Notes: generated from the letters alone by a model not told the origin. A stretch of DNA of 64,000 bases from an uncultured Rickettsiales bacterium (GCA_964467255.1 CAYXPR010000003.1:79530-143529); one strand, 5' to 3'; numbered from the stretch's first letter, positions 49,824 through 52,694 are shown. Made by a program: numbers and translations.

Positions 49824-50336
49824 TTAATCTGGGTCTTTGCCAAAGTAAAACCCGTATAAAACCTTCTCTATTTCCGGGTCGTCATATTTTTCTGATACGC
49901 GGCGTAGTTCTGTTATAAGAGGCAATATCATTGGCATTATTTTTTTCACCATCTCTGGTGCCGCATAGTTGTGGCAAAAATCTTCCAGCTCCTCTTTTAG
50001 CAGAGACTGGTAATCATCGTAATAATCCTGCCTGTCTTTATAAATCGAAAGCACTTTTTCAATAGCCCGCATGTCTCCCTTAGCGGCCTTGTTTGCAAAT
50101 TGTTTCATGGAAAGCGTGCGCTTATCGATTTTTACTGGTTTTTCCCCATCGAGGTTTACAGTCACTTTTTCATCAAAGGCTTGTTCTATAATAGTAAATA
50201 TATTTTTGGACCCTTTTGGGCGGCCTTTGGGGTTTCCGGAGACTCCTTTTTTGAATTGGTTTTTCTTAGGCGGCTTTTTATAACCAACAGTGTTTTCACT
50301 ATCGGCGGAACCATCACCATTTTTTTTCTTAGTCAC
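49824..50336 (-). CDS. DUF5681-like phage/island protein
   Basis: 170 aa. The basic N-terminus GYKKPPKKNQFKKGVSGNPKGRPKGSKN is typical of DUF5681. It overlaps the methyltransferase stop by 8 nt. Confidence 0.5.
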   Translation of the reverse strand: MTKKKNGDGSADSENTVGYKKPPKKNQFKKGVSGNPKGRPKGSKNIFTIIEQAFDEKVTVNLDGEKPVKIDKRTLSMKQFANKAAKGDMRAIEKVLSIYKDRQDYYDDYQSLLKEELEDFCHNYAAPEMVKKIMPMILPLITELRRVSEKYDDPEIEKVLYGFYFGKDPD

Positions 50337-51663
50337 GATTTTTCTCCTTTGAATTTTCTATTTCGTTAAACGTTTTTCCAGTTTTAGGGCTACCCGCATC
50401 CAGGCCAGTCAGTTTTTGCCAACGCCGGATGGCGGTATCTACATAAGCGGGGTCAATTTCTATGCCACAACACACGCGACCTGTGCGTTCGGCGGCGATA
50501 AGCGTAGTACCACTGCCCAAGAACGCATCCAGTACGATGTCGCCACGCTTTGAACAATCCATGAGAGCGTCTGCTACCATCTGAACCGGCTTAACCGTTG
50601 GGTGTAGTGCCAACAGGTTTCCTTCTTCCGAGCTATGTCTGGCAAAAGAATTCACCCCTGCATACTTCCAAACATTGGTTCGGTAACGGCCATGTTGGCC
50701 GAGTTCAAAATTATTTAAATGTGGCGCTGTTCCATTTTTGAAGACATATACCAACTCATGTTGGCTGCGGTAGAACGTGCCCATGCCGGCATTGTCCTTG
50801 CACCATACGCAAAGATTCTTGAGTTCGTTATACACTGTTCGCCCGGCTGTGATTATTTCATAGCCATGGCGCCAATCCATGCAGATAAAGTGTATACTGC
50901 CGTCCTTGCTGTAATTTTTAAGCAGGGAAAAGGATTTTATTAGAAATGCCGTGAACTCGCCTTCTGTCATTTCGCCGGAAGCCATTGCGAATTCACGATG
51001 CTTGACTTCACCGAGACCACAGACATGACCATCTACGGGCACATTGTAAGGTGGATCAATAAATACAACCGTAGCAAGGTCACCATTCATTACTTGCTTG
51101 AAGGTGCCGGCCTCTAGCGAACTGCCACAATACAATCGATGCTTCCCGAGATGCCACATGTCGCCTTGGCGCGTCACGGGCAGCCCGTTGGCGGTTTCGG
51201 GTATGTCATCGGCGGGATCGCTTTCTTGTGGGGCTGATTGCAGCATGAGGTCAATTTCGGCAACCTCGAATCCCGTAGCATCTAATTCAAAATCAAGGTT
51301 AATTGCTGAAAGTTCTTCAAAGTGAATTTTTAAAAGCGCTTCATCCCAGGCAGCATTTTCTGTAAGTTTATTGTCCGCAATCATGAATGCTGTGGCCTGG
51401 GCGTCGGTTAGATGCTCAAGCCGTATGACGGGCACCTCTTTAATCCCAAGCTGTTCACAGGCCAATACGCGACCATGGCCGGCAATGACCTGGTTTTTTC
51501 CGTCAACAAGCACTGGCACATTGAAGCCGAAAGCTTTTATGCTTTTGGCTATCTGCTCAATCTGCTTCTTGGAGTGAATGCGGGGGTTTTTGGGGTTTGG
51601 TTTTAGAGAGGACACAGAAACGCTCTCAACAGAAAGCGATTCTGAAAAGTGAAAAATATCCAC
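50329..51663 (-). CDS. ParB-like nuclease domain / N6- or N4-DNA methyltransferase fusion
   Basis: 444 aa. The ParB-N region is LKPNPKNPRIHSKKQIEQIAKSI...VIAGHGRVLA. Catalytic motif IV is VFIDPPYNV and the SAM motif is DAFLGSGTT. Confidence 0.85.
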   Translation of the reverse strand: MDIFHFSESLSVESVSVSSLKPNPKNPRIHSKKQIEQIAKSIKAFGFNVPVLVDGKNQVIAGHGRVLACEQLGIKEVPVIRLEHLTDAQATAFMIADNKLTENAAWDEALLKIHFEELSAINLDFELDATGFEVAEIDLMLQSAPQESDPADDIPETANGLPVTRQGDMWHLGKHRLYCGSSLEAGTFKQVMNGDLATVVFIDPPYNVPVDGHVCGLGEVKHREFAMASGEMTEGEFTAFLIKSFSLLKNYSKDGSIHFICMDWRHGYEIITAGRTVYNELKNLCVWCKDNAGMGTFYRSQHELVYVFKNGTAPHLNNFELGQHGRYRTNVWKYAGVNSFARHSSEEGNLLALHPTVKPVQMVADALMDCSKRGDIVLDAFLGSGTTLIAAERTGRVCCGIEIDPAYVDTAIRRWQKLTGLDAGSPKTGKTFNEIENSKEKNRD

Positions 51664-51879
51664 AGATAGACTCCTTTGTTATGCAACGCGACAGCCACCT
51701 GCCATCCGCGTTGCGGTTGTAACAAAATACTGAGTCCTATCCAGGATTCTTAACCTTAGAATTGCGGCCCTCACCACGGTTCAGGACGAACCAACAGAGA
51801 TTGCCGATAAAGATACCCTTCATTATAGATTTTTTATTCGTGCCCGCAATCACAGATTTTTCAAAAATAGCGATTACTT

Positions 51880-52377
51880 CTAGGGCTGGCAGACAATAAT
51901 TCCTACATTTTTGTATCTAGTCCAGGGGTCATCTAGCCAACGCGCCTCCGGCATTTTTTGTTTTAACCCAGCCTTATTCAGCAAGACATCTTCTTCGGCC
52001 GTAATAACAACGCCGATGCAATATTTTTGGAAAATATACAGCACACTTTCAGGGCTAATGTCATCCAGGCTAAAAAACATGTCTGTGAGGATTTTTCGTG
52101 GGACCAGATGCTCGTGACGTAGCTTTTTACTGGGTGGCATGCTTGAGGTAGCCCCGTTGCTCGTATCTTCGAAAGATTCCTTTGCCTTTACGCTCCAGTA
52201 GGGACAACCAACATATTTTCCTGAGGCCTCTGTATATTTCCACAGTAAGATACTGAATTGTTCAGATAAAATCTTTTCGCAGGCGTTATTGTAGAAGGAG
52301 CTCCTTCTTACCTGCTGCCTATACAAGAGGAATTCAACGGCTAAATTTATAACGCTTTGTCTGAAGTCATCTGGCAT
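51880..52377 (-). CDS. hypothetical protein (orphan; weak E-H-x-x-P motif)
   Basis: 165-aa AT-rich ORF, divergent from the XRE gene. It contains KKLRHEHLVPRK. No family assignment is possible by eye. Confidence 0.4.
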   Translation of the reverse strand: MPDDFRQSVINLAVEFLLYRQQVRRSSFYNNACEKILSEQFSILLWKYTEASGKYVGCPYWSVKAKESFEDTSNGATSSMPPSKKLRHEHLVPRKILTDMFFSLDDISPESVLYIFQKYCIGVVITAEEDVLLNKAGLKQKMPEARWLDDPWTRYKNVGIIVCQP

Positions 52378-52386
52378 TCAACAAAT

Positions 52387-52417
52387 ATCCTGTTTTGGGA
52401 TAATCCGAAAACAGGAT
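52387..52417. promoter_or_regulatory. 31-bp near-perfect palindrome, candidate operator in divergent promoter region
   Basis: In ATCCTGTTTTgGGATaATCCgAAAACAGGAT, 28 of 31 positions are symmetric, including perfect 10-bp outer arms. It lies between the 165-aa gene (-) and the XRE gene (+). Confidence 0.5.
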
Positions 52418-52460
52418 TAGCTCTTTATGCGCACCCTATCAACTCATTACTGCGCATATT

Positions 52461-52694
52461 GTGAAAAAAAGCATTTACTCCAAGAAATCTGAAGAACTAC
52501 AAGAGCTTTTAGTCAAAGCACGGCTGGATGCTGGCCTCACTCAGCAACAGCTGGCCGAGAAACTGGGCAAACATCAATCTTTTGTAGCAAAGTACGAAAA
52601 TGGTGAGCGCAGACTTGATTTGATAGAGTTTCTAAATATTGCCAGAGAATTAAAAATTAACCCACTCAAGATCGTAAAAGACCTGATTAGTTAA
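52461..52694 (+). CDS. XRE-family helix-turn-helix transcriptional regulator (GTG start)
   Basis: 77 aa. LTQQQLAEKLGKHQSFVAKYENGERRLDLIEFLNIAREL is a canonical HTH_3/XRE sequence. Confidence 0.8.
   Translation: MKKSIYSKKSEELQELLVKARLDAGLTQQQLAEKLGKHQSFVAKYENGERRLDLIEFLNIARELKINPLKIVKDLIS

Follow-up and report, generated by a model that had tools for sequence, protein, structure and literature searches.

A putatively repressor-gated 165-aa candidate conflict gene beside an orphan DNA methyltransferase on a low-GC mobile island

A ParB-N DNA methyltransferase gene, a 165-aa open reading frame and a short XRE-family gene lie together on a low-GC island in the 64-kb stretch of DNA analysed here (the window), and their proximity raises the question of whether they form one system. 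The original prediction took them as a single unit, possibly a restriction or defence system governed by a controller protein. The layout behind that proposal is present throughout: the reading frames and their domains, a gap of exactly 216 bp between the methyltransferase and 165-aa genes (51664-51879), a divergent spacer of exactly 83 bp between the 165-aa and XRE genes (52378-52460), and a 31-bp palindrome in that spacer. The AT-rich island is equally clear, with a GC content of 0.36-0.52 compared with 0.55-0.56 in the flanks; its left edge is marked by the 3' end of the tRNA-Ser(gct) gene, to the right of which GC falls at once from 0.55 to 0.36. The island is a mosaic of about 6.8 kb with a serine recombinase, and the GC content of its modules differs (methyltransferase, 0.48; XRE and 165-aa genes, 0.39-0.44; a RosmerTA-like pair, 0.36). 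Seven of its genes, encoding the 165-aa effector, the methyltransferase, DUF5681, DUF2924, the recombinase, M78 and DUF4411, share one strand, and the XRE gene is divergent from them. The features, in window coordinates, are as follows.

45887-45978, plus strand: tRNA-Ser(gct), left edge of the low-GC island (ARAGORN; Rfam tRNA, 56.8 bits)
46139-46627, minus strand: DUF4411/PIN-like protein, putative toxin of a RosmerTA-like pair (Pfam DUF4411, 6.7e-21; PIN, 2.4e-5)
46605-47741, minus strand: M78/ImmA-like zinc peptidase, RmrA-like, of the RosmerTA antitoxin type (Pfam Peptidase_M78, 6.6e-11; PADLOC RmrA, 2.9e-14)
47811-49352, minus strand: large serine recombinase, the island integrase (Pfam Resolvase, 4.4e-40; Recombinase, 2e-13)
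49353-49769, minus strand: DUF2924 protein, abutting the recombinase gene (Pfam DUF2924, 2.7e-37)
49824-50336, minus strand: DUF5681 protein, methyltransferase partner (Pfam DUF5681, 1e-21)
50329-51663, minus strand: ParB-N and beta-class N6A/N4C DNA methyltransferase, 444 aa (Pfam, PHROGs, PADLOC)
51655-51750, minus strand: 96-nt RNA stem-loop over the methyltransferase start (folding against shuffles)
51880-52377, minus strand: 165-aa effector (large unannotated family; AlphaFold2 model)
52387-52417, no strand: 31-bp palindrome, presumed XRE operator (unique in the window)
52426-52458, no strand: second inverted repeat beside the XRE start (repeat scan)
52461-52694, plus strand: 77-aa HTH protein of the XRE family, which presumably represses the divergent effector gene (Pfam HTH_3, 1.7e-13)

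The pair at 46139-47741 resembles RosmerTA, with an RmrA-like M78 gene overlapping a small toxin-like DUF4411/PIN gene, here by 23 nt and with the M78 gene upstream. The M78 protein also matches the NCBIfam spr1629 repressor/antitoxin model (6.4e-6, under the model cutoff). The pair differs from RosmerTA in that its toxin candidate matches no PADLOC RmrT model. It is neighbouring island cargo and belongs to neither the methyltransferase module nor the XRE/165-aa cassette.

The methyltransferase combines ParB_N (1.6e-8) and N6_N4_Mtase (8.4e-30) domains in Pfam and also matches phrog_498 (4e-125) and PADLOC MTase_II (1.6e-84). Its motifs VFIDPPYNVP (IV) and DAFLGSGTT (I) occur in that order, which indicates a beta-class enzyme. 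Its two domains and the order of its motifs are those of PHROG 498 and CcrM-like orphan ParB-N methyltransferases, CcrM being its nearest solved structure. Homologues are common: tblastn matched 1,108 phage records and 1,856 plasmid records. The start of the DUF5681 gene overlaps the methyltransferase stop by 8 nt. The same adjacency is seen at two homologous loci (L030 and L031) with a serine recombinase nearby, and the L031 recombinase, beside the methyltransferase homologue, is 49% identical to that of the island. Neither locus carries a 165-aa gene, an XRE gene or a shared nuclease gene. Conversely, ParB-methyltransferase homologues were found in none of about 15 distinct neighbourhoods of 165-aa family members, a small sample comprising three close cassettes and some 12 contexts of more distant members. 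Nor is the gene directly flanked by any other DNA methyltransferase there; the closest is an MmeI-like gene about 6 kb away (L042). Judged from these comparisons, the methyltransferase is an orphan, phage-type enzyme, part of the island's integration core and separate from the cassette.

The window gene differs from such orphans in one respect, a stem-loop over its start. The 8-bp-stem hairpin to which the original prediction had drawn attention as a possible regulatory layer (GCAACGCG-N16-CGCGTTGC, 51683-51714, 19-20 nt upstream of the GTG start) is present, but the window holds 39 hairpins of this kind compared with 19±5 in shuffles, and this copy alone is not significant; yet it is the core of a 96-nt stem-loop that is (dG -37 kcal/mol, z = -4.82, none of 200 shuffles folding as well). 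The predicted fold buries the methyltransferase Shine-Dalgarno sequence (AAGGAG) and the GTG start, and a U-rich tract follows. The stem-loop matches no Rfam family and has no conserved counterpart upstream of the two closest homologues, the methyltransferases of L030 and L031.

In contrast to the methyltransferase, the XRE gene does recur beside the 165-aa gene. The three closest homologues of the 165-aa protein lie at L001 6730-7572, L004 3872-4715 and L009 721-1520, in cassettes of about 0.85 kb (the window cassette, 51880-52694, is about 0.8 kb). By blastn, these loci share the XRE and effector DNA only, at 85-92% identity, in three different flanks. In each, a divergent 80-aa HTH_3 gene lies about 50 bp upstream of the effector (47 bp by the listed coordinates, 52 bp when counted from the likely ATG). 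The L004 cassette is located 50 bp 3' of a tRNA-Arg gene, and L001 keeps a fragment of that tRNA's 3' end. No DNA methyltransferase lies nearby at the three loci, and no recombinase or other element genes accompany the cassette. Low dN/dS values (0.11-0.23 for the effector, 0.07-0.09 for the XRE) indicate purifying selection on both genes. These comparisons support the XRE and 165-aa genes as a regulator/effector pair forming a self-contained cassette, so that the proposed unit holds for these two genes and not for the methyltransferase. The association has its own limits: adjacent XRE genes are confined to the closest clade of the 165-aa family, and most members are solitary, with no evident regulator or immunity gene, and this counts against strong intrinsic toxicity.

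Regulation of the pair at the DNA level is suggested by the intergenic region. The 31-bp palindrome (ATCCTGTTTTGGGAT-A-ATCCGAAAACAGGAT; 15-nt arms, one mismatch, 1-nt centre) stops 9 nt short of the effector ATG, on its upstream side. Nothing comparable occurs elsewhere in the window, none of 20 shuffles gave such a palindrome, and no further copy of its half-site was found anywhere in the window. The same region holds the second inverted repeat (TATGCGCA-N17-TGCGCATA), whose octamer is not over-represented in the window. A pattern scan called no sigma-70 consensus promoter in the 83 bp; a candidate effector promoter was read by eye, and the palindrome overlaps this predicted site. At L001, L004 and L009, a palindrome (CATGAGAG-CATA-CTCTCATG) overlaps the effector ATG and also covers a predicted -10 hexamer, again read by eye (TTGACT-N18-CATACT). 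A phmmer comparison of the window XRE with the XREs of these loci gave no match at E≤1; the latter are thus not detectably similar to it, and a different regulator occupies the same position.

The window XRE is of a generic kind. Its best PDB matches are a generic XRE protein (3f6w, 9e-16), C.BclI (3e-5) and HipB (2e-3), with C.AhdI and C.BclI among its nearest characterised structures, and in PADLOC it has weak matches to Control_protein (1e-5) and capH (5e-5). These matches, the adjacency of the three genes in the window, and the resemblance of a [D/E]-H-x-x-P motif in the 165-aa protein to HNH nucleases are what would favour a type II restriction-modification system, in which the ParB-methyltransferase protects the genome, the 165-aa protein cuts as a restriction endonuclease of a new type, and a C protein, the XRE, delays nuclease expression. 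However, C-protein models score the XRE no higher than other XRE models do, and its 77 aa and HTH_3 domain, while fitting the 70-100-aa size of XRE-type HTH regulators, are common to many non-C regulators. A C gene normally precedes the nuclease gene in the same orientation and has C-boxes of the GACT/AGTC type upstream of it; here the XRE gene is divergent from the effector, a single 31-bp palindrome lies nearest the effector start, and no C-box of that type was seen in the sequence. The strong stem-loop between the effector and methyltransferase genes, the differing GC content of the modules, the absence of the ParB-methyltransferase from the three close cassettes and the dozen or so distant contexts, and the pairing of its homologues with DUF5681 rather than with the effector all argue in the same direction. 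The controller-regulated restriction reading is weakened by the separate inheritance of methyltransferase and 165-aa gene and by the divergent XRE, and we regard it as highly improbable.

What does persist of the comparison with C-regulated systems (C.AhdI, C.BclI, C.PvuII, C.Esp1396I) is that a potentially harmful mobile-element gene would be gated by a small HTH protein of the XRE type acting with a palindromic operator; the window pair differs in its divergent regulator, in having no co-inherited cognate methyltransferase, and in an effector for which Pfam, PADLOC and Foldseek searches gave no match to a restriction enzyme. CapH of CBASS and the Aca repressors offer a similar likeness, a short HTH repressor acting through an inverted repeat on the promoter of a mobile-element conflict gene, as is presumed for the window. 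However, the cassette has no CapP-like protease partner, a single effector gene would be controlled, and what these families share with the window XRE is limited to the generic HTH_3 fold.

Direct binding is the other way in which a small partner could restrain an effector. In a classical type II toxin-antitoxin system, the XRE would neutralise a 165-aa toxin by binding it and would regulate its own expression, and post-segregational killing would stabilise the island. The small size and mobility of the two-gene cassette and the purifying selection on it are consistent with this, as are the XRE/HipB-type antitoxins among the XRE matches and the toxin-antitoxin genes that often neighbour the family at other loci. 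However, type II toxin-antitoxin genes are typically co-transcribed and a divergent order is atypical, whereas the genes are divergent, hence not co-transcribed, in the window and at L001, L004 and L009. The XREs have only 77-80 aa, most of which is covered by the Pfam HTH domain; two non-homologous XREs serve orthologous effectors, for which DNA-level control is an easier explanation than a co-evolved protein interface; and the partner is absent from most family members. We consider this arrangement quite unlikely, and repression of the 165-aa gene by the XRE the better account of the pair.

The effector itself belongs to a family that is real, large and, by profile comparison, unannotated in the four libraries searched. 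The original prediction had called it an orphan without a recognisable family: no match to the core was found for any of 150 members in Pfam, NCBIfam, PADLOC or PHROGs, but a profile search recovered 1,156 homologous clusters at 50% identity. A sequence-profile search of the PDB was empty at E≤10. The AlphaFold2 model (pLDDT 95.8, pTM 0.89) found no fold match in the PDB with Foldseek (TM ≤0.31). As the original prediction had noted, no restriction-enzyme family was matched; among restriction-endonuclease folds (PD-(D/E)XK, HNH, GIY-YIG, PLD, half-pipe), only HNH shows a resemblance, at the level of a motif. Three phage proteins in BFVD do share the fold (TM 0.51-0.70). The model describes a compact, enzyme-like, alpha/beta fold that is unmatched among solved structures.

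Conservation in the family covers W46, E50, G53-K54, G57-C58, W61-S62 and A65, together with H88-[E/D]89-H90-x-x-P93-[R/K]94, T126, E129-D130 and R154-Y155. The near-invariant H88-[E/D]89-H90-x-x-P93, with E129/D130, K54 and R154-Y155, suggests a metal-dependent hydrolase. Family members also occur as fusions to DUF429 and to DUF1643, the latter presumably related to uracil-DNA glycosylases. DUF429 is assigned to the RNase H-like superfamily in one study (PMC3985635). These fusions are suggestive of nucleic acids as the target.

A faint likeness to His-Me finger (HNH/DUF1524-type) nucleases had been noted in KKLRHEHLVPRK (residues 84-95), and this hint fares unevenly. The [D/E]-H-x-x-P motif is the most conserved in the family (H88 97%, [E/D]89 100%, H90 99% and P93 100% in 150 representatives), but neither the window protein nor 72 family members match the Pfam HNH families or DUF1524, even at E≤5, and Foldseek returned no His-Me structure for the model. 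An hhalign comparison with the Cas9 HNH domain placed its best local alignment exactly on the motif, at a probability of just 1.7%, which is not significant. In DSSP, the model has a strand at 86-90, helices at 94-102 and 109-119, a strand at 122-126 and a helix from 127 that carries E129/D130. The [D/E/H]-H expected at the end of strand 1, followed by phi-x-P, is thus present as a near-invariant [D/E]-H-phi-x-P ending strand 86-90, and an acidic residue begins the helix after the second strand, as in His-Me nucleases; the difference is an insert of about 30 residues (two helices) between the two strands. The order of elements in the model would be compatible with the beta-beta-alpha-metal topology of a His-Me finger carrying an insertion, although at the level of sequence the assignment is a motif-level lead.

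More distant family members have neighbourhoods that include defence islands and lend the family a conflict flavour, as far as gene content indicates. A TIR_2 protein is encoded 61-125 bp downstream in some loci, and a TIR/NDT-like protein (match below threshold) lies near the gene elsewhere; TIR proteins adjoin the family in two lineages. Other members lie beside AbiJ, a HicA-like gene or a Gp49/HigB and XRE toxin-antitoxin pair (HigBA), near rve, UvrD and the MmeI-like methyltransferase, or at a prophage end beside two serine recombinases. The TIR neighbours, the orphan and presumably anti-restriction methyltransferase adjoining the pair on a mobile island, the fold shared with phage proteins, and plasmid copies in regions dense with small hypothetical genes would also fit an analogue of Acr-Aca, in which the 165-aa enzyme disarms host immunity (e.g., by degrading a TIR-derived signal), complementing the methyltransferase, with an Aca-like XRE. 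However, tblastn with two queries found the family in none of 50,697 phage records and only 2 of 72,556 plasmids, two pattern sets found no relative in IMG/VR, and most copies are chromosomal. Acr-aca pairs are, moreover, normally co-directional, and the window pair is divergent. An anti-defence function appears very unlikely.

Seven co-oriented genes downstream of the XRE-controlled promoter region, and a pattern scan that detected no intrinsic terminator in the effector-methyltransferase gap, mean that the XRE could also influence the rest of the island. Taken further, the XRE could be a cI/ImmR-like repressor of the whole element and the 165-aa gene the first of a derepressible operon, perhaps encoding an antirepressor or excision-control factor, and the XRE might be a substrate of the ImmA-like M78 peptidase encoded at the far end; the family member beside serine recombinases at a prophage end would agree with this. 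We consider it unlikely, since the XRE-effector pair stands alone at three loci without recombinase or other element genes, and the majority of family members lie in integrase-free contexts. The match of the M78 protein to RmrA covers most of the model length, and with its partner DUF4411 the protein appears to form a self-contained unit; the U-tailed stem-loop at the methyltransferase start would limit read-through; and the modules differ in GC content.

The reading we prefer, and to which we give roughly even chances, is that two unrelated mobile-element modules lie side by side, an orphan methyltransferase and a repressor-gated 165-aa cassette, with a role in conflict between mobile element and host. 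The methyltransferase, travelling with the overlapping DUF5681 gene and with DUF2924 and the large serine recombinase nearby, would methylate the element itself against host restriction rather than serve as the protective half of a restriction system. The 77-aa XRE, presumably as a dimer, would bind the 31-bp palindrome over the candidate effector promoter and keep the 165-aa gene tightly repressed, as the layout and the parallel layout in the homologous cassettes suggest. The 165-aa protein would be the payload, probably a metal-dependent hydrolase; most tentatively, its substrate is nucleic acid, possibly acted on through a His-Me-like site with two helices between the strands. On sequence grounds, its gene is a candidate conflict gene and not part of a restriction-modification system, and its most likely role lies between mobile element and host, either in exclusion or abortive-infection defence or as an addiction-type toxin held in check transcriptionally by the XRE.

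The genes and sequence elements cited in the original prediction are all present where it placed them, but its tentative reading of the ParB-N/DNA methyltransferase, the 165-aa effector and the XRE regulator as one controller-regulated restriction or defence system is borne out only in part: co-occurrence in homologous loci separates the methyltransferase from the effector-XRE cassette. Both modules lie in an island whose low GC is borne out by the GC profile and whose left edge is the 3′ end of a tRNA-Ser(gct) gene (45887-45978).

Features of the island from left to right, in window positions
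46139-47741, minus strand: DUF4411/PIN-like gene overlapping an M78/ImmA-like peptidase gene; PADLOC RmrA models match the M78 protein at 2.9e-14; GC 0.36, the island minimum
Next: large serine recombinase gene with an abutting DUF2924 gene; GC 0.51-0.53
Next: DUF5681 gene, with an 8-nt overlap with the methyltransferase stop; GC 0.40
50329-51663, minus strand: 444-aa ParB-methyltransferase with ParB_N and N6_N4_Mtase domains; GC 0.48
51655-51750, minus strand: 96-nt imperfect stem-loop; dG -37 kcal/mol, z = -4.8, 0/200 shuffles fold as well
51880-52377, minus strand, and 52461-52694, plus strand: 165-aa effector gene and divergent 77-aa HTH_3 (XRE) gene, exactly 83 bp apart; GC 0.39-0.44
52387-52417: 31-bp palindrome with 15-nt arms and one mismatch
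52426-52458: second inverted repeat, TATGCGCA-N17-TGCGCATA, just upstream of the XRE start codon

The composition of the island is mosaic; at its left end, the DUF4411/PIN and M78 genes make up a RosmerTA-like module for toxin-antitoxin function or defence. The right edge was searched for an att repeat matching the tRNA-Ser 3′ end directly, and there is none; such a tRNA-derived repeat is not expected with a serine recombinase. An Rfam scan of the island matched the tRNA gene locus only. To the right lies host context of ordinary metabolism, where the gene downstream of ackA (53942-55372, minus strand) codes for 476 aa in which a MaoC-like dehydratase domain is fused to a phosphate acetyl/butyryl-transferase (called by Pfam on the identical locus L025), with a PPK2 polyphosphate kinase gene after it.

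The methyltransferase carries its DPPY motif before FLGSGTT and therefore belongs to the beta class. It matches phage PHROG 498 at 4e-125, and 1,108 phage and 1,856 plasmid records match it by tblastn. The overlapping DUF5681 gene is kept in both of its closest annotated relatives (53% and 49% identity), which also have a serine recombinase near and lack homologues of the 165-aa protein and of the XRE. Conversely, none of the family-member loci examined encodes a ParB-methyltransferase homologue. A controller-regulated restriction-modification system would accord with the local layout, in which exactly 216 bp separate the methyltransferase from the 165-aa ORF, and is rejected since this linkage is absent in both directions at the loci examined. 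The cassette is independent of the methyltransferase, which is an orphan element enzyme beside an autonomous XRE-gated unit.

An 8-bp hairpin upstream of the methyltransferase (51683-51714), put forward as a further regulatory layer, is present but alone is not significant, with 39 such hairpins in the window against 19±5 in shuffles. Its stem is the core of the 96-nt stem-loop, whose 3′ arm holds the methyltransferase Shine-Dalgarno (AAGGAG) and GTG start, and a U-rich tract read from the sequence, AUUUUUCACUUUUC, follows. The stem-loop could be a gate on methyltransferase translation, or an attenuator of transcripts that run on from the cassette into the element core genes. Upstream of the two closest methyltransferase homologues it is not conserved, and Rfam assigned it to no family.

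The 165-aa protein was initially regarded as an orphan; it is indeed without a library family, but it is far from isolated. While a word-indexed search returned only four relatives, an exhaustive profile search recovered at least 1,156 representative clusters (defined at 50% identity) at E≤1e-3, and 310 at E≤1e-10. The members found here belong to Firmicutes, Acidobacteria, Planctomycetes, Proteobacteria and Actinobacteria. Searches of Pfam, NCBIfam, PADLOC and PHROGs with the effector and 72-150 members left the core without a match, even at E≤5; JetD and PtuB were single-member PADLOC matches, neither located among the 10 longest members. Rare fusions carry an N-terminal DUF1643, a domain related to uracil-DNA glycosylases, a C-terminal DUF429, or DUF6508. 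Literature searches on these three domains gave one pointer, the placing of DUF429 in the RNase H-like superfamily (PMC3985635). Narrow-alignment searches gave 4 genome and 8 metagenome loci and no related locus in viral contigs, and tblastn matched 0 of 50,697 phage records and 2 of 72,556 plasmids; at this sensitivity, sequenced phages and plasmids are almost free of the family. Conserved over 150 representatives are W46, E50, G53-K54, G57-C58, W61-S62, A65, H88-[E/D]89-H90-x-x-P93-[R/K]94, T126, E129-D130 and R154-Y155.

Of the two linkages whose absence was to refute the original prediction, that of the family to XRE genes holds in the nearest clade and that to methyltransferases fails. 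The closest effector homologues, P0002-P0004 (50-54% identity), occur in three unrelated neighbourhoods, namely a two-component cluster, a YfdX, tRNA-Arg and glycosyltransferase setting, and a PLD and ExoI setting, and each has an uncalled, divergent 80-aa HTH_3 ORF about 50 bp upstream. Among these loci, the DNA common by blastn is only ~0.85 kb, running from the XRE stop to the effector gene end at 85-92% identity. At one of them (L004) the cassette lies 50 bp 3′ of tRNA-Arg; at another (L001), 65 bp (6614-6678) repeat this tRNA's 3′ end together with the sequence beyond it, which at L004 (3802-3865) flanks the cassette. The copy is possibly what remains of an attachment site, a hint that the cassette once moved at the edge of a tRNA-integrating element. 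The effector has dN/dS ratios of 0.11-0.23, the XRE of 0.07-0.09.

In the homologues, the intergenic palindrome CATGAGAG-CATA-CTCTCATG overlaps the effector ATG and also a candidate -10 hexamer (TTGACT-N18-CATACT, by eye). The 31-bp palindrome of the window occurs there once, further copies of the operator having been sought in the window and none found, and 0/20 shuffles give one. A weak candidate promoter, TTGATA-N17-TAATCC by eye, would place its -10 inside the distal palindrome arm; a consensus promoter scan of the effector-XRE intergenic region called none. The inverted repeat at 52426-52458 spans TTGATA, the candidate effector -35 (by eye). The cassette is a mobile unit of defined architecture, with both genes under purifying selection and an operator unique in the window. 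Bound to the palindrome, an XRE dimer would block access to the effector promoter or 5′ end and so repress the gene. The window XRE has no detectable similarity to the XREs of the homologue loci, and its operator differs from theirs, while position and orientation of the XRE are equal. The presence of two unrelated XREs in one position argues that the effector needs a dedicated repressor.

No XRE adjoins the distant family members examined. At four loci (L018 432-1719, L019 1453-2740, L020 2688-3975 and L008 3986-5745), a family gene with 37-39% identity to the window protein is followed by a co-directional TIR-type gene, encoding either a TIR_2 protein (1e-20) or a sub-threshold TIR/nucleoside-deoxyribosyltransferase (NDT)-like protein, which may be a second two-gene arrangement of the family. 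Elsewhere the neighbours are AbiJ and a resolvase; a HicA-like gene; a Gp49/HigB and XRE pair; or an rve integrase, a UvrD helicase and an MmeI-like enzyme. Some distant members sit within phage-like gene sets, and a Desulfosporosinus member lies at a prophage end, with lysis genes on one side and two serine recombinases on the other. Family neighbourhoods are mainly of the genetic-conflict type.

Two further settings were observed. One phage-like locus (L012) holds paralogous family copies at 4560-5198 and 6001-6672, 0.8 kb apart with an LRR_5 gene between them. On related metagenome contigs (L033 782-1333, L037 215-775, L039 2704-3192), a divergent member with GKHNT for GKYxGC immediately precedes the ribosomal protein cluster rplA-rplJ-rplL (ORFs by eye). 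Beside it is either an IS200/RAYT-like transposase and a Uma2-like nuclease (by eye) or a Gp49/HigB-XRE pair, which Pfam confirms in L039. The site looks like an insertion hot spot.

AlphaFold2 with a 150-sequence alignment modelled the effector at pLDDT 95.8 and pTM 0.89, as two long N-terminal helices followed by alternating short strands and helices. Foldseek had been suggested as a check on a nuclease fold; with both effector models it found neither a nuclease nor any other PDB match at E<0.5 (best E 0.58, TM ≤0.31), the weak rows being HEPN and helical bundles at TM about 0.2-0.3, and a PDB sequence-profile search was empty. BFVD returned three uncharacterised phage proteins with the effector fold (TM 0.51-0.70) and nothing else. 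The predicted fold is of high confidence and unmatched among solved structures.

The string KKLRHEHLVPRK, faintly likened earlier to His-Me finger nucleases, is present in the ORF. In the model, its [D/E]-H-phi-x-P core ends a strand and is followed by two inserted helices, a second strand and a helix starting at E129-D130; this predicted order would fit a His-Me finger interrupted by an insertion. Against the Cas9 HNH domain, the best hhalign alignment paired exactly effector KLRHEHLVPRK with DYDVDHIVPQS, at a probability of only 1.7%; neither this result nor that for T4 endonuclease VII was significant. As neither profile nor fold supports membership, the effector is likened to HNH nucleases, and possibly works like one, rather than being classed among them. 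That it would be a metal-dependent enzyme on nucleic acid is the weakest step of the proposed mechanism. GIY-YIG, PD-(D/E)XK, HIT and HEPN readings of its motifs were rejected, their spacing or secondary structure being unfit by eye and no fold matching.

The cassette payload comes from a large family that carries no annotation. Both this family and the cassette are well defined, and function is inferred. Uncharacterised candidate defence or toxin genes of such kind are common. It is a tentative and rather doubtful proposal that the effector is the founding member of a widespread enzyme family, acting on its own in immunity or exclusion (for example as a highly derived His-Me-type nuclease), gated by interchangeable XRE repressors in one clade and TIR-paired in others, and so a new defence family absent from PADLOC v2.0 (2023). 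For annotation, a methyltransferase beside an unknown gene is not evidence for restriction-modification, the co-occurrence test having split the modules here. With 0.8 kb, two genes and one operator, the cassette is a clean minimal model. Two unrelated XRE repressors recruited to the same job suit it to studies of how mobile elements domesticate toxic cargo. The family is new to Pfam, NCBIfam, PADLOC and PHROGs alike, with a fold that has no solved counterpart, and would, should the effector prove to be a conflict enzyme, be a large, taxonomically broad addition to the genes of bacterial immunity and addiction.
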